From the IMG/VR virus record IMGVR_UViG_3300042935_001404: a stretch of DNA of 64,000 nucleotides; one strand, 5' to 3'. The notes under the pieces were generated by a model. It did not search any database and was not told the DNA's origin. It was given only the letters and a program-made list of their open reading frames with translations. Shown here in pieces: positions 1,631 through 59,232 of this stretch; within the stretch, counting starts at the first letter, position 1, and the number at the start of each line of letters is the position of its first letter. The stretch is from a virus. Taxonomy: Duplodnaviria > Caudoviricetes. Made by a program: the position numbers and the translations under genes.

Positions 1631-2830
1631 TTAAGAATTTTGTTGTTCTAGGTTAATGGGTGTAGCGACTTGTGTTTTATCAATGGCAATTTTTAAAATA
1701 TTTCGTGATTGATAATCTTTTAAGTTGTACATATGGGGTAGTAGTACTCGTTCAAGTTCTGTGTGCAATCCGCGAGCACCTGTTTTTGTGGTAATTGTAC
1801 GTTCTGCAATCAAGTCTATACTGTCGGCATCAAAGTCCAGGGCCACACCATCCTGGTTAAACAACCATCTGTACTGACTGACCAAGTTGTTTTTTACTTC
1901 TGTTAAAATAGTAATAAGTTGAGATTTGGTCAGTTCTTCCAACTGTATAATAGATGGGAACCGTCCCACAAACTCTGGAATCATTCCGTAACGTACCAGA
2001 TCGTCGGGTGTGATTGCTTCGGATACAGTTTCTTTGACAGTGCTGGCGCCAAACCCAATCGACGTGCCTTGTGTACGTGCTTTAATCACTTTGTCTAGTC
2101 CAACAAATGCACCACCTACAATAAACAGTATGTTGGCAGTGTCAATGTCAATTGTTTCACTGCTGGATGTTTTGCGCACTCCTTGATTTGGCACTTTACA
2201 ACGTGTGCCTTCGATCAGTTTAAGCAGTGCTTGTTGAACACCTTCGCCACTCACATCACGTGATACAGTACTGCTTTCACCTTTGCGAGCAATCTTATCT
2301 ACTTCGTCAAGAAAGACGATTCCACGTTGTGTGCGTTCAACATCGTTGCCGCTGGCGTGATACAATCTAGCAATCAAACTGTCAACATCGTCACCTACAT
2401 AGCCTGCTTCTGTCAGCGTTGTGGCATCTGCAATGACAAAAGGCACATCCAGGTATTTGGCCACTGTGCGAGCCATCAATGTTTTACCTGTGCCGGTTGG
2501 GCCGGTCATCAAGATGTTGGCTTTTTGTATTTCGTTTTCAGGATCTGCATTGCCAATACGTTTGTAGTGATTGGCAATTGCTACACTTAACACAATCTTG
2601 GCAGTGGTCTGGCCAATCACATATTGGTCCAGATACCGGTGTATTTCACGTGGATCTAACACTGACTCTGTTGTGGGTTTCTTGTCATGTTCTTTTGACA
2701 ACAGCAGTCCGTGACAGAATTCCACGCACTCGTTGCATATGCCAACATTGTGTCCTACAATTAGTTTGCCCACTTGATCTTTGTGCTTGTTACAAAAATT
2801 ACAATGCGTGGGTGTTGTTTTAGCGATCAT
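1631..2830 (-). CDS. clpX: ATP-dependent Clp protease ATP-binding subunit ClpX
   Basis: N-terminal C4 Zn finger CNFC...CNEC, Walker A GPTGTGKT, Walker B FLDEVDK, RDVSGEGVQQALLK, IGF loop. Confidence 0.96.
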   Translation of the reverse strand: MIAKTTPTHCNFCNKHKDQVGKLIVGHNVGICNECVEFCHGLLLSKEHDKKPTTESVLDPREIHRYLDQYVIGQTTAKIVLSVAIANHYKRIGNADPENEIQKANILMTGPTGTGKTLMARTVAKYLDVPFVIADATTLTEAGYVGDDVDSLIARLYHASGNDVERTQRGIVFLDEVDKIARKGESSTVSRDVSGEGVQQALLKLIEGTRCKVPNQGVRKTSSSETIDIDTANILFIVGGAFVGLDKVIKARTQGTSIGFGASTVKETVSEAITPDDLVRYGMIPEFVGRFPSIIQLEELTKSQLITILTEVKNNLVSQYRWLFNQDGVALDFDADSIDLIAERTITTKTGARGLHTELERVLLPHMYNLKDYQSRNILKIAIDKTQVATPINLEQQNS

Positions 2831-21048: not shown

Positions 21049-21768
21049 TTAACTATTTAGCATATAATACTGCTCTACTCGTTTCCACCAAAGACCGCAG
21101 TATTTTTCAAACTCGTTGCCCTCTAGTACAAATTCCTGGTATTCAGGTGTGGTAAGCACATTGCCCATGTCATCAGTTGTGGGTTTGACACACATTAAAA
21201 TAACACCTTTTTTAATCTTTGTTCCGTGCAGTTCGTTATGTGCTTCTGCATAGGCGCAAAGTTGTAAAAAGTAATCGTCGATCCATTCACGTTTTTTGGG
21301 CTTGTTGGTTTGTTTGTAGTCTATGATGGCTTCTTCGTTTAAGTGCAGGCCGGCAGCATCTGTTGTGCCTGCATACACCTTGGGAAAATATAGTGGAACT
21401 TCGTAGCCCCAAAACTCATTCACCCGATTGGTAATTCCTTCATTAATCACTGTTTCTGCCATGGCATGACTTGCCCACCCAAACGGGTTTGTACCACGGT
21501 CTTTTAGTTCGCCATTCTTGACATAGTGTTCCAGGTAGGTGTGCATACGTGTGCCGCGGTTAGCAGCCTCAGTGGTAATCTGTTGTGCCTTTTCGTAGCC
21601 AACACGTCGGCGCCATTGTTCAAGAATTAACTTTTTTTCTTCAGGCTTGGTTTTGTCAAGGATAGTCGTGACACTGGGTAACTTGTTGCCGTCAGGAGTG
21701 GCATAAAAACGTTTGCCATTTACTTCTACACGCGGCACCGGTGTGTAATTAAATTTTGGATTGTACAT
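21049..21768 (-). CDS. PD-(D/E)XK exonuclease (T4-like phage, Cas4/RecB-like fold)
   Basis: LPSVTTIL, RGTRMH..LE, YAGTTD, IIDYKQ, QLCAYA. Confidence 0.85.
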   Translation of the reverse strand: MYNPKFNYTPVPRVEVNGKRFYATPDGNKLPSVTTILDKTKPEEKKLILEQWRRRVGYEKAQQITTEAANRGTRMHTYLEHYVKNGELKDRGTNPFGWASHAMAETVINEGITNRVNEFWGYEVPLYFPKVYAGTTDAAGLHLNEEAIIDYKQTNKPKKREWIDDYFLQLCAYAEAHNELHGTKIKKGVILMCVKPTTDDMGNVLTTPEYQEFVLEGNEFEKYCGLWWKRVEQYYMLNS

Positions 21769-23029
21769 GTTGCAAATGAGAGTTGTATATATGTTTATGG
21801 GCGTCTGACAGTTTGTCAAACAGTTTGGAATTTAGGGTGTAGCTATCAGTATCGGTGCGATTGTCGTAATCTGCGGTAAATTTTAAATATTCTGTAAATG
21901 TTGGTTCTGTGTTTCGTTTATTATTCATAACAGTGGACAACATTGACGTGAAATATCCTTTGAGTACATCGGTGCGTTTGTATTTTTTAAACACTGTGTG
22001 GTTTACGCATTGCTCTAACAGTTCAATCAGTTGCGGGTAGTATTGCAATGATAAACTTTCTACCATCAATGGCTCAGGATTATACAAGTGTATGTTTGAC
22101 ATCCATAAATCTGTTTGTGTTTGATCTGCCCAGCGTTCCCACCAATCAAGATAATCTGTTGCATAAAAAATATTGTTCAATGAAAATACAGGACTAACCG
22201 ACAACGAAAATTTTCCTGGATATTGTTGACTCAACGAATTGAATGTTTTTAAGTTGTCTTCAATTTTGTTAAATTTAGCAGGCCATCTCACATAATGATA
22301 ATTTTCCCCAACGCTGTCGATGCTTGAAAGAAATTCTATGCGTTTGAACAATGCAAATTTTTCAGAAAATTTTTCAGATATGCTAGGCACAAGACTGGTA
22401 GTAATACGCAGTGTAGTTGTCCCTGCTAAGTTTTCTGCAATCAACCAATCAACTAATTTTAAAAATCCAGGTTGCACCATTGTTTCGCCACCAATTGGAT
22501 GTACAATGAAGTTATCAGTTTCGTTATGTTTGCAAAGAATCATGTCAACTAGTGCATTCCAATGGTTCTCGTTTGTTGAAATATCAATTTCGTATTCAGT
22601 CTCAGCCGGGCGACCCATCAGCTTGGACCATAAACTGCTGTCAGTTTCGTTGCAACTGCGACAGGCTAAATTACATAAATTGCTGAATTTCATTCCAACT
22701 TGGAATTCAGTTGTTTTTCTGGACTGCTTAAACTGTTCTAGTTCGTCGGCCGAGTAACCCAGCATGTATTTTACACGTTCTGACTGTGCTTGATTTTGTT
22801 CATCGTGTGTGCATCGCCAGCAATGCTCTGACACAATGTTCTTTGACATGTCTTGCTTGACATTTTCTATAAAACTAAAATCCAGATCTTTATTTGTTTT
22901 AGATATGTCTAAATTACAACAAGTTGTAACTTTAAATTTGTCAAATTGAAATCTGAAATCGTATGCAGAATAAGGTGCTGTGCAAAATTCAGGATTATTT
23001 TTAATCCATTGAATTGTTTGTGAGGTCAT
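21749..23029 (-). CDS. Radical SAM protein with N-terminal SPASM/twitch-like Cys cluster
   Basis: FCTAPY, TCC, CWRC at the N-terminus; CNLACRSC (CxxxCxxC); GGET motif; ATGA overlap with iscA. Confidence 0.88.
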   Translation of the reverse strand: MTSQTIQWIKNNPEFCTAPYSAYDFRFQFDKFKVTTCCNLDISKTNKDLDFSFIENVKQDMSKNIVSEHCWRCTHDEQNQAQSERVKYMLGYSADELEQFKQSRKTTEFQVGMKFSNLCNLACRSCNETDSSLWSKLMGRPAETEYEIDISTNENHWNALVDMILCKHNETDNFIVHPIGGETMVQPGFLKLVDWLIAENLAGTTTLRITTSLVPSISEKFSEKFALFKRIEFLSSIDSVGENYHYVRWPAKFNKIEDNLKTFNSLSQQYPGKFSLSVSPVFSLNNIFYATDYLDWWERWADQTQTDLWMSNIHLYNPEPLMVESLSLQYYPQLIELLEQCVNHTVFKKYKRTDVLKGYFTSMLSTVMNNKRNTEPTFTEYLKFTADYDNRTDTDSYTLNSKLFDKLSDAHKHIYNSHLQHVQSKI

Positions 23030-23346
23030 ATTCTGAATGATTCTCCACAGCCACAACGATCACGCTCATTTGGATTGCGAAATTCAAACCCTTCATTGAG
23101 TCCTTGTCGAACATAGTCAACTGTGATGCCTTGCAAATACGCACCAGATTTAGGATCTACAAATACTCGACAGTTGGCACAGTCAAAACACTGATCCTCG
23201 GGTTGTGGATTGTCTACATATTCTAACACATAGGCAAGTCCAGAGCAACCAGTGGTTCTGACTCCAAGTCTGATTCCTTCACCGTGTCCACGGCGAGTTA
23301 ATGTTTGTTGAATTTTTCGAGCGGCAGCATCAGTTAACGAGATCAT
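23026..23346 (-). CDS. iscA: Fe-S cluster assembly A-type carrier IscA
   Basis: GVRTTGCSGLAY, FEFRNPN, CGCGESF. Confidence 0.95.
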   Translation of the reverse strand: MISLTDAAARKIQQTLTRRGHGEGIRLGVRTTGCSGLAYVLEYVDNPQPEDQCFDCANCRVFVDPKSGAYLQGITVDYVRQGLNEGFEFRNPNERDRCGCGESFRI

Positions 23347-23722
23347 GCTTCTTACGATAGTCGTCTACAGCCGCTTTGATTGCGTCTTCGGCTAGAATGC
23401 TACAATGGATCTTCACGGGGGGTAAGGCCAATTCTTCAGCGATGTCGGAGTTTTTGATTGCTCCTGCTTGGTCGATGTGCATGCCTTTGACCCACTCGGT
23501 AATAAGGCTCGAGCTCGCAATAGCCGATCCGCAGCCATACGTTTTAAAACGTGCATCTGTAATAATACCTGTATCATTATCGACCTTTATTTGTAATTTC
23601 ATGACATCCCCGCAAGCAGGTGCGCCAACCATACCAGTGCCAATATCAGTATCAGTCTTGTCAAAAGATCCGACATTCCTGGGATTTTCATAGTGATCAA
23701 CTACCTTTTTGGAGTATGCCAT
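23330..23722 (-). CDS. iscU: Fe-S cluster scaffold IscU
   Basis: MAYSKKVVDHYENPRNVG, GAPACGDVM, YGCGSAIA, LPPVKIHCS. Confidence 0.97.
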   Translation of the reverse strand: MAYSKKVVDHYENPRNVGSFDKTDTDIGTGMVGAPACGDVMKLQIKVDNDTGIITDARFKTYGCGSAIASSSLITEWVKGMHIDQAGAIKNSDIAEELALPPVKIHCSILAEDAIKAAVDDYRKKHDLVN

Positions 23723-23728
23723 GTGTGT

Positions 23729-23932
23729 TTACTCTGGTTTAATGTTGGATGCCTGCAGGCCTTTTTGTCCTTGAACCACATCGTATGTCACACGTTGATT
23801 TTCCTTGAGGACTTTAAAGCCTTGCGTCTGAATTGCTGAATAGTGTGCAAACAATTCTTCGCCACCTTCGTCTGGAGTAATAAACCCAAAACCTTTGGTT
23901 TCATTAAACCACTTTACTTTACCTAATGCCAT
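23729..23932 (-). CDS. csp: Cold-shock domain protein
   Basis: [15 protein letters not shown] (RNP1), LFAHYSAI (RNP2). Confidence 0.95.
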
Positions 23933-24041
23933 ATACTGCTACTACTTTCTGTTTTAATTTACTAATTTACAATTACTTTGTACACGTTCTTGTGTCTACC
24001 TACCTCAAATGTATTATACTACATTCTGTGTGTATTTACTA

Positions 24042-24935
24042 TCATTTTGGTTCTTTTATCCAGGACTTTTTACGATCACTGAAAGTAATTGGTTTGTATT
24101 CGTATGATTCTGGGCAGAACTTACATTGATCAATTTGATTGTCAATCGTGTCAATAAATTCTTTGCCCCGGATGTCAAATTCATCAATGGTCAACGGCTT
24201 ATAGCCGTGTAGCATAGCACGATCCTCATCGCTTATTTCAAAATGGTATTGATCATCAAATTCGGGCATTAATGCAGCCGGTCCGCATTTATAAATCTTA
24301 CCATTGATCATGTGATAATTTTTAAATCTGCGAAAAGTGCAGTTTTCGTGTGCCCGTGCAGGATCACTTTGATACAGTGTGTACTTGTTATCTGGCAGTT
24401 CAATGATATTGCTTTGAACAAACTTGTTGCTCATCCAGGCGTGAATTTTTAATTTTTTATCATTAATAAATTGATAATCGCTACCAATTGGATCATCCTT
24501 GTGTTGTGTTTCTATTACAGTGGGTCCCAAGAAGTTTCGTACACGAGCAAATATTTCTTCTCGGTCATTGGGATTGTGTATGCTAATGCCTAGCCAATTG
24601 CCTACCTTAGGATCAAGTGCTTCTTCAAGTCCTTTGACACAATCAATTCTAGTGCCGTTGCTTTGGACTTGGGTTCCTGAATGATTGGGCCATAGTTTAT
24701 TAACGCCAGTGATCCACTTGACAATGTCAGGATTAAGCAGTGGTTCGCCGCCAAGGATTACAGGATGTCGTATATCTATTTTTTCTGCCCAGCGTGTGAG
24801 AACAGGTTCGGCTTCTGCCCAACTTTGCCAACCGCTGAATTTATAATTGTTATATCGGTTACAACCATTGCAGGTTAGGTTACACACGTTGGTGATGTAG
24901 AATTCTAACTTGTCAATCAAGATTTTTTGTGTCAT
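24042..24935 (-). CDS. Radical SAM protein with C-terminal twitch/SPASM-like motif
   Basis: ITNVCNLTCNGC, LGGEPLLNP, C...GKIYKC...CKFCP; late-type ATTAAATA 24943-24950. Confidence 0.88.
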   Translation of the reverse strand: MTQKILIDKLEFYITNVCNLTCNGCNRYNNYKFSGWQSWAEAEPVLTRWAEKIDIRHPVILGGEPLLNPDIVKWITGVNKLWPNHSGTQVQSNGTRIDCVKGLEEALDPKVGNWLGISIHNPNDREEIFARVRNFLGPTVIETQHKDDPIGSDYQFINDKKLKIHAWMSNKFVQSNIIELPDNKYTLYQSDPARAHENCTFRRFKNYHMINGKIYKCGPAALMPEFDDQYHFEISDEDRAMLHGYKPLTIDEFDIRGKEFIDTIDNQIDQCKFCPESYEYKPITFSDRKKSWIKEPK

Positions 24936-24972: not shown

Positions 24973-25314
24973 TTATTGGCGACGCTTCAAGGCTGCTTTG
25001 GCATTGCTGTCAACAACTTCACGTGCTTGGTCAACACTCATGCCTGTGGTGGCTTCGGTGTTGCCTTTGAATCTAACTATGCCTGAATTTGGTTCAAGTG
25101 GTTCAAGCAAGTTGCTCAATGGTTCACGGCTGATCATGTCACCAAGATTTTGTTCAGTTACGTTAACGCCCATTGACTGAGCTAAATCAATAAATGCTGC
25201 TTGACTAATTTGTTTTGAGGCTGCTTCGTCATCGGCTCTGTCGCTGAGAAACTGAGTCAGCGCCGCTAGTTTAAGAGCGCTGTTGGCAGTTTCATTAAAC
25301 TCACGTAGACGCAT
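24973..25314 (-). CDS. Late/virion protein
   Basis: MRLREF N-terminus (L-x-E), coupled to upstream gene. Confidence 0.65.
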   Translation of the reverse strand: MRLREFNETANSALKLAALTQFLSDRADDEAASKQISQAAFIDLAQSMGVNVTEQNLGDMISREPLSNLLEPLEPNSGIVRFKGNTEATTGMSVDQAREVVDSNAKAALKRRQ

Positions 25315-32524: not shown

Positions 32525-33267
32525 AGATCATTGTCTAGATTCAGCAGGTCTATACCATACTGATGTTGTATCATTCCACACATAATTCCAAAATCTATAT
32601 TGTCAAAATATTCTGGTATAGTTGTGGTTGTTTTGTTTACCACAGCGTCGCATATTTTTTGATACTGGGCCACACGATCAATTATTGGACGTTGTGCGGT
32701 AATAAAATGTTTCCAAATCGACTCTGAATTTTTACCATCAATTCCGGGCATGGTGGCCATCAACTTGATAAAAGAATCAAGTTGATAAAAATCAGGAAAA
32801 TTAACATTTAATCCCGACATGTCAGATGGCAAATGTTCAATAGTTCTAAGAATAGCATGTTGATAGATATAAAAAAATTCTTCTCGCAGACTATTATTAC
32901 TTGTGGGAAATTTTTCCTTTGCACTAGTAATAAATTTTTGTTCTGTAGTTTTATCGGACTGTATGGCCTTGCGATAAAAATTGTTTAGATAAATTTCCCA
33001 ATGCCCATTAACTAAGATATTTACAACCAGGCGATCTTGAAATTTTTTTGTTAAATCCCGGTTATCAAAATTATGTAAGCATATTACTGGACTGTCAGTA
33101 TCGTCGGCTCCGGTATACAGATCTATGTTGTTGGTTTGCGAAGAATAATTTTTTGTTAATCCATGATAACTGCCAGTGGTGTGAACAGAAAAATCATATT
33201 CGTCGGCCAGTATTCTTGCCAAGAAATGTCCCAATGCTCCGGGCGGCGCAGTTATAATGTATTTCAT
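32515..33267 (-). CDS. P-loop sulfotransferase-like protein
   Basis: MKYIITAPPGALGHFLARIL N-terminus resembles a PAPS-binding loop; paralogous start to 42619-43455. Confidence 0.4.
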   Translation of the reverse strand: MKYIITAPPGALGHFLARILADEYDFSVHTTGSYHGLTKNYSSQTNNIDLYTGADDTDSPVICLHNFDNRDLTKKFQDRLVVNILVNGHWEIYLNNFYRKAIQSDKTTEQKFITSAKEKFPTSNNSLREEFFYIYQHAILRTIEHLPSDMSGLNVNFPDFYQLDSFIKLMATMPGIDGKNSESIWKHFITAQRPIIDRVAQYQKICDAVVNKTTTTIPEYFDNIDFGIMCGMIQHQYGIDLLNLDNDLWI

Positions 33268-34355
33268 TATTCTACCTCTAAATCTGGAAATGCTGTTTTC
33301 CAACTATTATTACGGCGGCTATCCCAGGTATTAATAAAATCTTTCCATGGCTCTGATTCTGACAGAGTTGGTGCCAACGGCAGGTTGGCCACTAGTTTAT
33401 ATATTGCATGATCGGTTGAATATTTTTTCAGCACTGCTGATCTAATATACATTGGCATGTTGTTTAAATCCCAAGGCCCCCAACACGGATGAATGTTAAT
33501 TTCTGTTGGGTCTCCAAATGCATTGGTGTTTAAGTTGCTTTTTACCCAAGTCTCAAGTCGATCATAATAGTAGGTGTTAAGAACATTGGCTGTGAATTCC
33601 ACTCTGAACATTAAATTCCATATGTCTTTATTTTCTTTAAGACGTATCAAATTTTTACTGACCTTGCTCCAAGGCAGTGGCCATCGAACATAATCAAATT
33701 GTTCTTCTATTCCATCTAAACTCGCAGCAAAAATTATTGTTTTAAATTTTTTCCATTCCAGTAATGTTTGCTCTGAAGGATATATAGATCCATTGGTGGT
33801 GTAGTGTAGTGTTACGTTTTCTGGATGAGGAATATGTTTTATAAAAGCCAAATGAGTATCTGTAAACAGTGGTTCGCCGCCGAAAAACTTAACGTATTTT
33901 AGTTTTTTTAAAGACACAGTGTCAACCAGTTGATTGATTGAGTTGATAATGAAATCATTGTCCCTGTTGATTGTTATTTTTTTGTTGCGTAACTTTGCCT
34001 GTTCTTTTTCCCATAAAGAGCTACTATGAGAATTGCAAATTATACAGGCTGCATTGCATTCATTGTCAAAATTAATGTCTACGGCCACTGGATCTGTAGA
34101 TGTTTCGTCGTCTGGCACCCAGTCGGAACCGGTTTGTCGTAAACTTTGCTGACCGAAATCTTCCAGTGTTTTGCACTTTGCACAATTACTAGTCCAGTGA
34201 TCAATTGACTCAAAGTTAAGTTTACGATTTTGTGACAGTTGAGAATTCAAAGGTATTGCTGTGGCAAACAAGCAACAAGGTCTTACACTGATACCCGAGT
34301 TTTTATCTAATTTAAATGAATACCCATTGGACAGATATCTACAAAAGCTATTCAT
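33267..34355 (-). CDS. Radical SAM protein with N-terminal SPASM/twitch-like Cys cluster
   Basis: FCRYL, RPCC, CAKC; CNAACIIC (CxxxCxxC); FFGGEP, YTTNGS; same architecture as 21749-23029. Confidence 0.88.
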   Translation of the reverse strand: MNSFCRYLSNGYSFKLDKNSGISVRPCCLFATAIPLNSQLSQNRKLNFESIDHWTSNCAKCKTLEDFGQQSLRQTGSDWVPDDETSTDPVAVDINFDNECNAACIICNSHSSSLWEKEQAKLRNKKITINRDNDFIINSINQLVDTVSLKKLKYVKFFGGEPLFTDTHLAFIKHIPHPENVTLHYTTNGSIYPSEQTLLEWKKFKTIIFAASLDGIEEQFDYVRWPLPWSKVSKNLIRLKENKDIWNLMFRVEFTANVLNTYYYDRLETWVKSNLNTNAFGDPTEINIHPCWGPWDLNNMPMYIRSAVLKKYSTDHAIYKLVANLPLAPTLSESEPWKDFINTWDSRRNNSWKTAFPDLEVE

Positions 34356-53270: not shown

Positions 53271-53787
53271 AATACCCTACATAATATTTCTCTAGGCTGG
53301 GCAGTTTAACCTCGACCCAGCCTGCAAAGTCATCATGTGTCCATGAACTTTTGTGTATATCAAATTGATTACCATGACTCCAAATTCGTTCGTTTTCGAT
53401 ATTGTGTGTATTGTCTGTCCAAATTTCAGGTAGTGGGGTAAGTAAAAATATTTTTTTATTGACTATTTTCTTGCAATCTTCCAATAGTCGAACGCCTGCA
53501 TCTTTGTTTAAGTGTTCGATAAAATCTATCATTAAAATATAATCCCAACGCTCGGTGGTAATTTCAAAGATAGGAGTAGTCTCAACATTGGCCACAATGT
53601 CTGGTTCAACCCAATCCCATGCATCAATTGTTAACACACGACACTGTTGTTCTAGCAACGGCGATGAGTAGGCTTTGGGGCCGCACCCTATATCTAATAC
53701 TGTGCTGCCAGTGGCTACACTTTCATTAATAAACTGTGACAATAAATCATTGCGACTGGCTCTTTTTCCTTTGATTTTAAATTTCAT
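53260..53787 (-). CDS. Class I SAM-dependent methyltransferase
   Basis: VLDIGCG, IDA, DFIEHL. Confidence 0.82.
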   Translation of the reverse strand: MKFKIKGKRASRNDLLSQFINESVATGSTVLDIGCGPKAYSSPLLEQQCRVLTIDAWDWVEPDIVANVETTPIFEITTERWDYILMIDFIEHLNKDAGVRLLEDCKKIVNKKIFLLTPLPEIWTDNTHNIENERIWSHGNQFDIHKSSWTHDDFAGWVEVKLPSLEKYYVGYYEA

Positions 53788-54545
53788 TGTATACTTTCTT
53801 TATTTGGTGCATGTATTGTTCCATCAACAGTGATGTTAAAATACAAATCTTTATTATTTTGATCAGGCTCAATGTTGTCAGGATGCCCGTAACTCTTATG
53901 GTGATATTGATGTATAACCATTGGTGTTGCTACAAATTCAAGATTGCACACTTGTTTGATTCTATATAGTATTTCTGCATCGTCCCAGTTATGTCCTGTT
54001 GCATATCTTTCATCAAATCCGTTGACTTTGATTAGATTATTTCTGGTAATGGCATTGCAAAAGTGAAATGCCACTGGACGCTCAATTTCGTGATTATACC
54101 AACGTGCTTTTTTTGATGTTGACACTGTGGGAATTGATCCTTGCTGATGCAATACTGTAACATCTTGTTTAGTACATGCCCAGCAATGAAAACTAAGATA
54201 TGTTTCATCAGTAAGATTCTTAGCAACATAATTCAACACATCTCCCATATGGCAACATTCAGGGTTTTGTATCACAATCATATCTCCGCGACTGGCACGC
54301 AGTCCTACATTATATGGAATACATGGATTACAATAGTCTTTTTTTGTTACTTTCTCTTTCATACGAATAATATTAAACTGTAATTGTGGAAACTCATTGG
54401 GTATACCATCTAAACTATTATCAGCATCACTGAAGTCATCTACAATGACCACTTCTACATTTTTGTACGCACTATTTGCAATAGTCTGCAATGTGAATTT
54501 TAGTTGAGGTAACCTATTATAATAGGCCATCACTATTGATATCAT
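53784..54545 (-). CDS. GT2 glycosyltransferase
   Basis: ISIVMAYYNR, VIVDDFS, YNVGL, GFDERY, DAE. Confidence 0.88.
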   Translation of the reverse strand: MISIVMAYYNRLPQLKFTLQTIANSAYKNVEVVIVDDFSDADNSLDGIPNEFPQLQFNIIRMKEKVTKKDYCNPCIPYNVGLRASRGDMIVIQNPECCHMGDVLNYVAKNLTDETYLSFHCWACTKQDVTVLHQQGSIPTVSTSKKARWYNHEIERPVAFHFCNAITRNNLIKVNGFDERYATGHNWDDAEILYRIKQVCNLEFVATPMVIHQYHHKSYGHPDNIEPDQNNKDLYFNITVDGTIHAPNKESIQ

Positions 54546-57997: not shown

Positions 57998-58263
57998 TAG
58001 TTTTCCCAGTCATCGTCTTGGTCGTGGTCTTCTTCCTCGGGTTCTTCGTCTTCGACGTAATCTTTATCATTGTCAAGATACGCAGTTAAAGCTGCCTTAA
58101 CATCGCGATCTCCTGTAAAGGCATCTCGAATATCCTCTGCATCACTGTCATTGTCCATTAAAATTTGTACTAGAGTTTCTGCCGCTTCGGCACGATCTAC
58201 TGTGTTTATGTAGCGTTTAAGTTCTCCCCAAATTTCTTTGGTTAATTTTACATCAATGGTCAT
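57997..58263 (-). CDS. Conserved acidic protein upstream of uvsY
   Basis: 88 aa with acidic tail, TAATG coupling. Confidence 0.7.
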   Translation of the reverse strand: MTIDVKLTKEIWGELKRYINTVDRAEAAETLVQILMDNDSDAEDIRDAFTGDRDVKAALTAYLDNDKDYVEDEEPEEEDHDQDDDWEN

Positions 58264-58585
58264 TTTGTTTCCTTTTATCTAATTTTTCCGTATAAAGATC
58301 AGATGCACATGCAGTACAGCTTTCTTTCCTGCATATTGTATACTCGGTTAAAAACTTAAAATTTTCATCAAACAGATTTCCTAAATTGTCGTTCTTACAG
58401 GTACCTGCGTAGACTGAAAAATCAACATCTATATAGATACTTGTAACTCCAGCGTTACAAAGCCAACCTTTCCAATGGTGCAAATCTTTATCATACAATT
58501 GATTGGCAGATATTTTAACCTCGCTGCCGTCTTTCAATTCTACTATAGCACTGCAATGAATATCCTCAGTTAGTGTAGTATTCAT
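58253..58585 (-). CDS. Stand-alone SPASM/twitch-like Fe-S domain
   Basis: CNAG..IYID....YAGTC...LGN...C...C..C; ATGA overlap with the radical SAM core gene. Confidence 0.7.
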   Translation of the reverse strand: MNTTLTEDIHCSAIVELKDGSEVKISANQLYDKDLHHWKGWLCNAGVTSIYIDVDFSVYAGTCKNDNLGNLFDENFKFLTEYTICRKESCTACASDLYTEKLDKRKQNDH

Positions 58586-59232
58586 GAAAAGTTCATTTGG
58601 TTAGTAATCTTTATCGGGAATTGATTCTTTCCTTGTCTATAATCCTTGATTGGATGTGTATAGCTAACAATTCCGTGTTTTTCTAAAAATGTTTTGTATT
58701 GCTCATTACGAGCTCGATGCCATGATTCATCCATGATATTGACTGATACTAGACATTTATGACTTTGTGCAAACTGGTGTAGATTTAATACTAGATTAAA
58801 AAACTTTTTTTCTTTCATAAATTCACTATGTGTAGAAAATGTAATCCAATCACAATAATCCATCATTTCCTTATAGTATGCTAGACTAGCTGTGCCATTG
58901 GTAGTGACTCCAACATTCCCTAGGTCGTGCGCAAAGCACTCATGCAACCATTTTAAAAAAGGAAGAAAATTTTTATTTAAAGTAAGTTCACCCCCTACAA
59001 ATGCCAAATTATATTTGATATTTTTCCTAGGGCTAGCTGATATAATTCGATTCCACGCCGCTTGCAATTTCTCTAATGAATAATCTTTAGATGTTTTATC
59101 ATGCCATTGATCTGGACAATAACTACAATCAAAATTACACCTTGTTCCAACTAGCCAATGGATTGTAATACCCGGTGCATACTCACGTATCCGAACAATG
59201 GGATTACTGTCAGTTACTACAATCGATTGCAT
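58582..59232 (-). CDS. Radical SAM core domain (no C-terminal SPASM)
   Basis: GTRCNFDCSYC, FVGGELT, TTNGT, FSTHSE. Confidence 0.88.
   Translation of the reverse strand: MQSIVVTDSNPIVRIREYAPGITIHWLVGTRCNFDCSYCPDQWHDKTSKDYSLEKLQAAWNRIISASPRKNIKYNLAFVGGELTLNKNFLPFLKWLHECFAHDLGNVGVTTNGTASLAYYKEMMDYCDWITFSTHSEFMKEKKFFNLVLNLHQFAQSHKCLVSVNIMDESWHRARNEQYKTFLEKHGIVSYTHPIKDYRQGKNQFPIKITNQMNFS

Follow-up and report, generated by a model that had tools for sequence, protein, structure and literature searches.

An iscU–iscA pair flanked by radical SAM genes in an uncultured freshwater jumbo phage

Genes and proteins of the iscU–iscA locus

The stretch of DNA analysed here (the window) comprises 64,000 nucleotides of the IMG/VR virus record IMGVR_UViG_3300042935_001404. 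It comes from an uncultured freshwater jumbo phage whose replication genes are of the T4 type (gp41-type helicase, gp32 and RecA/UvsX-type recombinase). The subject of this study is a cluster of five genes in which iscU, iscA and csp lie between two genes for radical S-adenosylmethionine (SAM) enzymes. This arrangement had been described in an initial annotation made from the sequence alone, and all five genes are found on the minus strand exactly where that annotation had placed them. The first gene, rSAM_A (24042..24935), encodes a 297-amino-acid (aa) radical SAM protein (PF04055) with a C-terminal, twitch-like auxiliary-cluster domain containing four cysteines. It lies upstream of csp, as annotated, and is separated from it by a gap of 109 nucleotides (nt). 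The csp gene (23729..23932) encodes a 67-aa cold-shock protein of the CspA family (PF00313, E 3e-28) and is followed after 6 bases by iscU (23330..23722), the gene for an Fe–S cluster assembly scaffold (PF01592, TIGR01999). Next, iscA (23026..23346), which overlaps iscU by 17 nt, encodes an A-type Fe–S carrier (PF01521, TIGR00049) with an extra cysteine triad, C53-x2-C56-x2-C59. The cluster ends with rSAM_B (21749..23029), which encodes a 426-aa radical SAM enzyme of the N_Twi type (NF033640); the coordinates bear out the annotated ATGA that couples the iscA stop to the start of this gene. Two minus-strand genes, syntenic in most loci, form the borders of what we call the slot: upstream, a conserved 113-aa gene without a family match (24973..25314) and, downstream, a PD-(D/E)XK exonuclease gene (21049..21819; phrog_298, E 9e-54).

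IscU is intact and contains the three cysteines that had been reported for it. It scores 219.3 bits against TIGR01999 (cut-off 192.4) and 183.9 bits against PF01592 (cut-off 22, E 2e-54), and Cys37, Asp39, Cys64, the LPPVK motif (residues 100–104), His106 and Cys107 are all present. A column test across 45 phage and 78 bacterial sequences found C37, D39, LPPV100–103 and H106 to be invariant; C64, C107 and K104 were read from the window sequence and not by this test. The phage protein is 81–87% identical to IscU of Comamonadaceae (Rhodoferax, Limnohabitans, Hydrogenophaga and Curvibacter). A specialised phage IscU was considered and rejected, as no phage-specific fixed substitution distinguishes the 45 phage sequences from 78 bacterial sequences. 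In one relative (G007:C1:145356-145737, the contig of locus L043), the IscU match is split into adjacent open frames of 54 aa and 101 aa, which may reflect an interrupted gene or an assembly error. A preprint on ribonucleotide reductase (RNR) that mentions IscU deals with IscU-like domains of class II RNR and has no bearing on the phage protein.

IscA was also correctly annotated as intact. It passes the cut-offs of PF01521 (68.5 bits versus 26.3, E 7e-19) and TIGR00049 (113.7 versus 58.8), scores just below that of the IscA equivalog TIGR02011 (147.1 bits versus 150.6), matches E. coli IscA (1S98) with an E value of 8e-38 and is 50–68% identical to IscA of Comamonadaceae. The canonical residues C34, C98 and C100 (C-x63-C-x-C) are present in 74/74 viral and 78/78 bacterial IscA sequences. 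The phage protein differs from the bacterial ones in its extra cysteines: to the triad found in the window, many relatives add a fourth, C68. Three or four of these residues (C53, C56, C59 and C68) are present in 64 of the 74 distinct viral IscA sequences (four in 30, three in 34, two in 5 and none in 5), compared with 0 of the 78 closest bacterial sequences. Accordingly, the total number of cysteines is 6–7 in 42 of 45 phage IscA proteins and exactly 3 in all 78 bacterial proteins. At positions 53, 56, 59 and 68, the bacterial residues are V, D/G, V and L, and E. coli IscA has V54, D57 and V60. The extra motif is absent from phage ErpA copies and from megaphage A-type carriers. In bacteria, hydrophobic residues occupy three of the four positions, and the fourth is located at a hairpin turn, which makes a buried site for a metal or cluster plausible. 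A complex prediction for two phage IscA copies with three 4Fe–4S clusters scored 0.38 versus a mark of 0.42 and so speaks neither for nor against such a site. We found no description of an A-type carrier with such extra cysteines in the literature; the feature is new in this analysis.

The two radical SAM enzymes of the cluster are built differently. rSAM_A scores 42.8 bits against PF04055 (cut-off 29.5) and contains the cluster motif CNLTCNGC; its start was assigned to the ATG at 24935, yielding 297 aa, because its homologues are 291–303 aa in length. C18, C22 and C25, the auxiliary C199, C217, C271 and C274, and G62-G63-E64 are invariant in 56 sequences. The AF2 model of rSAM_A (pLDDT 93.8) has SpeY, a twitch-type radical SAM dehydrogenase, as its best PDB match (7wzv, E 1e-11), on which it superposes with a TM of 0.62 although sequence identity is 17–18%; MoaA, EpeE and BtrN are far behind in the structural matches. 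The spacing of the auxiliary cysteines (C-x17-C...C-x2-C) appears to resemble that of BtrN. In its predicted structure, rSAM_A resembles sugar and aminocyclitol dehydrogenases of the BtrN/SpeY type, and a sugar or cyclitol would be our guess, by analogy, for its substrate. rSAM_B scores 171.7 bits against NF033640 (N_Twi_rSAM; cut-off 170) over profile positions 2–390, contains the motif CNLACRSC and has no Pfam match. Five N-terminal cysteines (C16, C37, C38, C70 and C73) precede its radical SAM motif (C119, C123 and C126), and these residues as well as G180-G181-E182 are invariant in 53 sequences. The rSAM_B model (pLDDT 94) has no full-length counterpart in the PDB. Because their auxiliary cysteines are invariant, rSAM_A and rSAM_B probably each need at least two clusters.

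Including these two, the window encodes four CxxxCxxC enzymes, the number given by the initial annotation. The third is the product of a second N_Twi radical SAM gene located beside the gp41-type helicase gene (33267..34355, minus strand; NF033640, 179.6 bits versus 170); like rSAM_B it passes the cut-off of a family in which no member has a known reaction. The fourth, of 216 aa, is the product of a short radical SAM gene (58582..59232, minus strand) that adjoins the gene for the RecA/UvsX-type recombinase (PF00154); it matches PF04055 (31.5 bits versus 29.5) and phrog_13987 (E 4e-13) and falls below every NCBIfam cut-off. None of the four belongs to the housekeeping families QueE, NrdG or MoaA, for which the best scores are 19–30 bits against cut-offs of 131–325. 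By contrast with the enzyme count, the free SPASM-like protein that had also been annotated could not be confirmed: the best candidate, a Cys-rich 110-aa open reading frame (ORF) at 58253-58585 (minus strand), has no Pfam match. The product of this ORF contains six cysteines, and the stop of the 216-aa radical SAM gene overlaps the start of the ORF; the product may be an auxiliary-cluster partner of the 216-aa protein. The two were also considered as a split copy of the radical SAM–SPASM family found in the slot, which was rejected, as was ORF 53784-54545, twitch-like by its Cys pattern, which is a GT2 glycosyltransferase.

The csp gene is confined to the closest subclade (loci L001–L018) and so does not belong to the conserved unit. 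In the gap that separates rSAM_A from csp lies a promoter-like element, TAAATA-N14-TATAAT (24013..24038, minus strand), which is the sole match in the window (chance expectation 0.02) and is kept in loci L001, L003, L007, L010 and L012. Its sequence and position hint at a regulatory role before csp. A sigma-70 consensus scan identified no site upstream of csp, and the T4-type late promoter TATAAATA has 2 matches in the window, equal to the chance expectation, with none near the cluster. In 18 loci, the gene immediately preceding iscU or csp encodes a member of a family of small proteins (92–132 aa), and its stop often overlaps the start that follows (for example, L013:9057-9374, L020:9344-9634 and L022:2606-2884). 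The family has a signal peptide, a His-rich stretch and a glycine-zipper membrane segment, with a C-terminal Cys pair in many members, and corresponds to no Pfam family; these may be metal-binding envelope proteins. The window has lost this gene, the last ~20 bases of which remain at about 23973-23993 (minus strand), beside the promoter-like element.

Conservation, origin and genomic setting of the pair

Uncultured freshwater T4-type jumbo phages with genomes of ~350 kb make up the family to which the window belongs. Close relatives of its IscA are found in hundreds of IMG/VR contigs, 7 of which span 261–374 kb. The closest complete relative, G001, is 346,856 bp in size with terminal repeats, and the genome-level counts given below were taken from relatives G001–G007, not from the window's own genome. 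Among cultured phages, PA5oct, Atu_ph07 and other jumbo phages come nearest, at 32–49% identity in the gp41 helicase. The stretch was detected in 20 lake-water DNA sequencing runs, 3 of which possibly represent the window's own sample, and in no RNA run. When a collection of deposited phages was searched at the DNA level with a 4.4-kb query, only short iscU or csp matches were returned, several of them in mislabelled bacterial contigs. Protein searches of deposited phages identified 2 distant phages each for rSAM_A and rSAM_B; a distant rSAM_A relative was traced to a contig of 1.9 kb only, without informative neighbours. Elsewhere in the window, a ClpX-type unfoldase with an AAA_2 domain and a ClpX C4 zinc finger is encoded at 1631-2830 (minus strand).

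In most loci, iscU and iscA are bracketed by the 113-aa gene on one side and, on the other, by the exonuclease gene, which is followed by a tail-fibre-like gene and nrdA. Over 80 loci, the two genes are 73–99% identical, whereas the flanking genes fall to 30–60%. The ratio of non-synonymous to synonymous substitution rates (dN/dS) of iscU and iscA is about 0.04–0.16 relative to L013, L010 and L007, where dS is unsaturated, and in dN the two genes are two- to threefold below the flanking genes. The pair is thus under purifying selection. In a tree of concatenated IscU and IscA sequences, the 45 phage pairs form a single clade apart from the 78 bacterial pairs (SH-aLRT 100), with a stem of 0.31 substitutions per site, and this clade sits nearest the Comamonadaceae. 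The topology fits one old capture of an adjacent iscU–iscA pair, with a Comamonadaceae-type bacterium as host. One contig binned as Synechococcus sp. (L118; CALRUK020000005.1, 264 kb) carries a Comamonadaceae-type iscU–iscA pair whose IscU is 86% identical to that of the phage; it is probably a mis-binned betaproteobacterial contig.

Compared with the ISC operon of Comamonadaceae (iscR-iscS-iscU-iscA-hscB-hscA-fdx), the phage pair has the same gene order and adjacency, the same ligand residues and the same LPPVK motif. However, the phage keeps two genes only, a 17-nt overlap replaces the spacer, radical SAM genes are interleaved with the pair and the phage IscA has its additional cysteines. 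The absence of iscS from the window, part of the initial annotation, holds there and extends to five near-complete relatives (G001–G005), in which no IscS-type desulfurase (PF00266) scores above the cut-off. Nor was a gene for Hsp70/HscA (PF00012), a Fer2 ferredoxin (PF00111) or flavodoxin found in these five genomes, HscB not having been searched for. Because these genes are absent, sulfur mobilisation, chaperones and reductant would be supplied by the host.

Some of the relatives encode further components. Four of the five near-complete genomes have a second A-type carrier, which in G001 is ErpA (G001:C1:19519-19815, also L176:64-387; NF010147, 140.8 bits versus 117). One of the five long relatives, again G001, encodes the SAM synthetase MetK (G001:C1:94565-94969; PF02773, 199.6 bits). 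Judged by gene content, the phage would contribute the scaffold and carriers and, in G001, SAM synthesis too. Work attributed to Vinella et al. (2009) reportedly describes an E. coli relay of A-type carriers from IscA or SufA to ErpA. The phage family likewise has both IscA-type and ErpA-type carriers, which would match a two-step delivery of [4Fe–4S] clusters; it differs in that the G001 ErpA gene is ~270 kb from iscA, a position outside the window.

Radical SAM genes around the pair and across genomes

The content of the slot differs even among close relatives. Three mutually unrelated radical SAM families occupy it in differing combinations: rSAM_A-type genes (F5) before iscU, radical SAM–SPASM genes (F3) between iscU and iscA, and N_Twi genes (F2) after iscA. 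Other cargo includes genes for GNAT proteins, a dCMP-type deaminase, an SGNH-like protein, small membrane proteins and proteins of unknown function. Local linkage was measured across 74 distinct viral IscA loci, with any ORF of at least 200 aa containing CxxxCxxC counted as radical-SAM-like. Within 2 kb of iscU/iscA, 60 such ORFs are found in 344,920 bp, compared with 9 in 642,192 bp farther away, an enrichment of ~12-fold. At least one adjacent radical-SAM-like ORF is present in 34 of the 74 loci, and 13 of the 74 have one between iscU and iscA.

The same association is seen at the level of whole genomes. A comparison of radical SAM gene number with the presence of iscU/iscA had been suggested alongside the initial annotation, and the counts are in line with the correlation it anticipated. 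Seven long contigs that are positive for iscU/iscA contain 19, 21, 12, 17, 11, 12 and 14 PF04055 hits, whereas ten cultured jumbo relatives without PF01592 or PF01521 contain 0–4. In G001, 16 N_Twi genes score above the NF033640 cut-off, and its radical SAM genes total at least 21. By an exact rank test (our own arithmetic, with the positives belonging to one clade), the two groups are completely separated, with a two-sided p of about 1e-4.

An association of this kind has a precedent. In 2017, Nishimura et al. reported marine T4-like genomes that combine IscU and/or an A-type carrier with as many as 12 radical SAM genes (in a 183-kb genome), and a scaffold or carrier serving phage Fe–S proteins was already proposed for these phages (PMC5332604). 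Earlier Pacific Ocean Virome reports on phage Fe–S genes are summarised in PMC6359870. The concept of phage Fe–S supply to radical SAM enzymes is therefore not new. In both the marine and the freshwater systems, a phage IscU and/or A-type carrier is accompanied by several radical SAM genes, and no cysteine desulfurase was reported in the marine phages (PMC5332604). They differ in habitat, in the genome size of ~350 kb and in the derivation of the pair, which is from Comamonadaceae here and from Gammaproteobacteria there. They also differ in the number of radical SAM genes, which is larger here (at least 21 in G001), in that the presumptive clients here lie physically beside and inside the iscU–iscA pair, and in the 3–4 extra conserved IscA cysteines, which are absent from that paper's account. 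Beyond this precedent, the present analysis contributes a measurement of the linkage, a contrast between whole genomes, the derivation of the pair from Comamonadaceae, the accompanying ErpA and MetK genes and the additional Cys site of IscA.

A model for Fe–S supply and its alternatives

The initial annotation had proposed that the phage raises Fe–S supply for an expanded radical SAM repertoire. Local enrichment, genome counts and the exclusion of housekeeping families lend support to this proposal, and we regard supply of clusters by phage IscU and IscA to phage radical SAM enzymes as the best-supported reading and a reasonably probable one. In this model, an ancestor of the freshwater jumbo family would have taken an adjacent iscU–iscA pair from an isc operon of Comamonadaceae type and retained it under purifying selection. 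Phage IscU would draw sulfur from the host cysteine desulfurase IscS, with host HscA and HscB acting through the retained LPPVK docking motif, and would build clusters to be passed to phage IscA, with phage ErpA as a further carrier in G001. The carriers would then load [4Fe–4S] clusters into the large phage radical SAM set, most members of which would need at least two. Genes of at least three unrelated radical SAM families have inserted ahead of the pair, within it or behind it, and this compact string of genes would thus yield clients and helpers together. We infer, rather than observe, the timing of expression, a limitation of the phage radical SAM enzymes by cluster supply, and cooperation of the phage proteins with host IscS and HscAB.

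An extension of the model concerns the extra cysteines of IscA. It is conceivable, though we would not rate it as likely, that the phage protein is a two-site carrier: a second Cys site, gained on the stem of the phage clade, would hold an additional Fe–S cluster or a metal ion, and the carrier would deliver both radical SAM and auxiliary clusters to two-cluster enzymes.

Several observations weigh against the supply model. The seven positive genomes form one clade, and the genome contrast therefore amounts to one evolutionary event. Among the negatives, Atu_ph07 and Phosso have four radical SAM genes without iscU/iscA. Conversely, the megaphages LR756504 and LR756511 (~600 kb) encode an A-type carrier (LR756504.1 393373-393678 and LR756511.1 324465-324779; loci L093 and L094) with no PF04055 hit and no IscU, so phage carriers are not always tied to radical SAM genes. 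Small podophages of the HMO-2011 type carry iscU/erpA (PMC9038755), which suggests a more general benefit. In the family itself, a radical SAM gene is missing from the 2 kb around iscU/iscA in 40 of the 74 loci, and neither G003 nor G005 has one near the pair. Finally, because GNAT, deaminase and SGNH genes also land in the slot, it is a general insertion hot spot.

Several of these points favour the strongest alternative, that iscU and iscA are general auxiliary metabolic genes that sustain host Fe–S metabolism (respiration, nucleotide and cofactor synthesis) or repair oxidised clusters, without phage radical SAM enzymes as particular clients. The HMO-2011-type phages and the megaphages, with few or no radical SAM genes, are as this explanation expects, as are the 40 loci without an adjacent radical SAM gene and the lack of phage-specific change in IscU; moreover, the Pacific Ocean Virome work treats Fe–S genes as general drivers of phage production (PMC6359870). 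However, it does not account for the ~12-fold local enrichment of radical SAM genes, their insertion between iscU and iscA or the ATGA coupling. Among the genomes compared, repertoires of 11–21 radical SAM genes are found only where iscU/iscA are present, and the conserved extra IscA cysteines argue for some specialisation. On this evidence, we consider a purely general role rather unlikely.

We give less credence to the second alternative, in which adjacency is a by-product of a recombination hot spot, bounded by the 113-aa and exonuclease genes, that gathers mobile cargo, radical SAM genes being the commonest accessory genes. The diversity of the cargo, its turnover between close relatives and the high genome-wide density of radical SAM genes (about 0.6 per 10 kb in G001) are consistent with such a by-product. 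Yet the density beside iscU/iscA is 1.74 per 10 kb, ~3 times the G001 average and 12 times that of the flanks of the same loci. Furthermore, three unrelated radical SAM families arrived independently, and in the 13 loci with a radical SAM gene inside the pair neither iscU nor iscA is broken. An origin of the linkage in the hot spot alone is therefore improbable. Least credible is an anti-host action in which the phage proteins compete for IscS or alter the cluster state of IscR to reprogram host Fe–S homeostasis: phage IscU, lacking a phage IscS, must use the host enzyme and, at 81–87% identity to the protein of the likely host family, should dock on it, but this explanation leaves the radical SAM linkage, the ErpA copy and the extra IscA cysteines unexplained and strikes us as very improbable.

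The identity of phage IscU to that of Comamonadaceae amounts to a host prediction for an uncultured phage family. The extra cysteines of IscA offer a lead, open to direct testing, on the ways in which A-type carriers can be altered and, if the two-site reading is true, would represent an A-type carrier variant that evolved in a virus. Maturing radical SAM enzymes is hard, and phages with 11–21 of them are an extreme case. If phage IscU, IscA and ErpA do make such repertoires workable, they would be practical helper genes for laboratory expression of the uncharacterised N_Twi radical SAM family, and their presence would explain how a large, oxygen-sensitive tailoring chemistry can operate in an aerobic lake bacterium.

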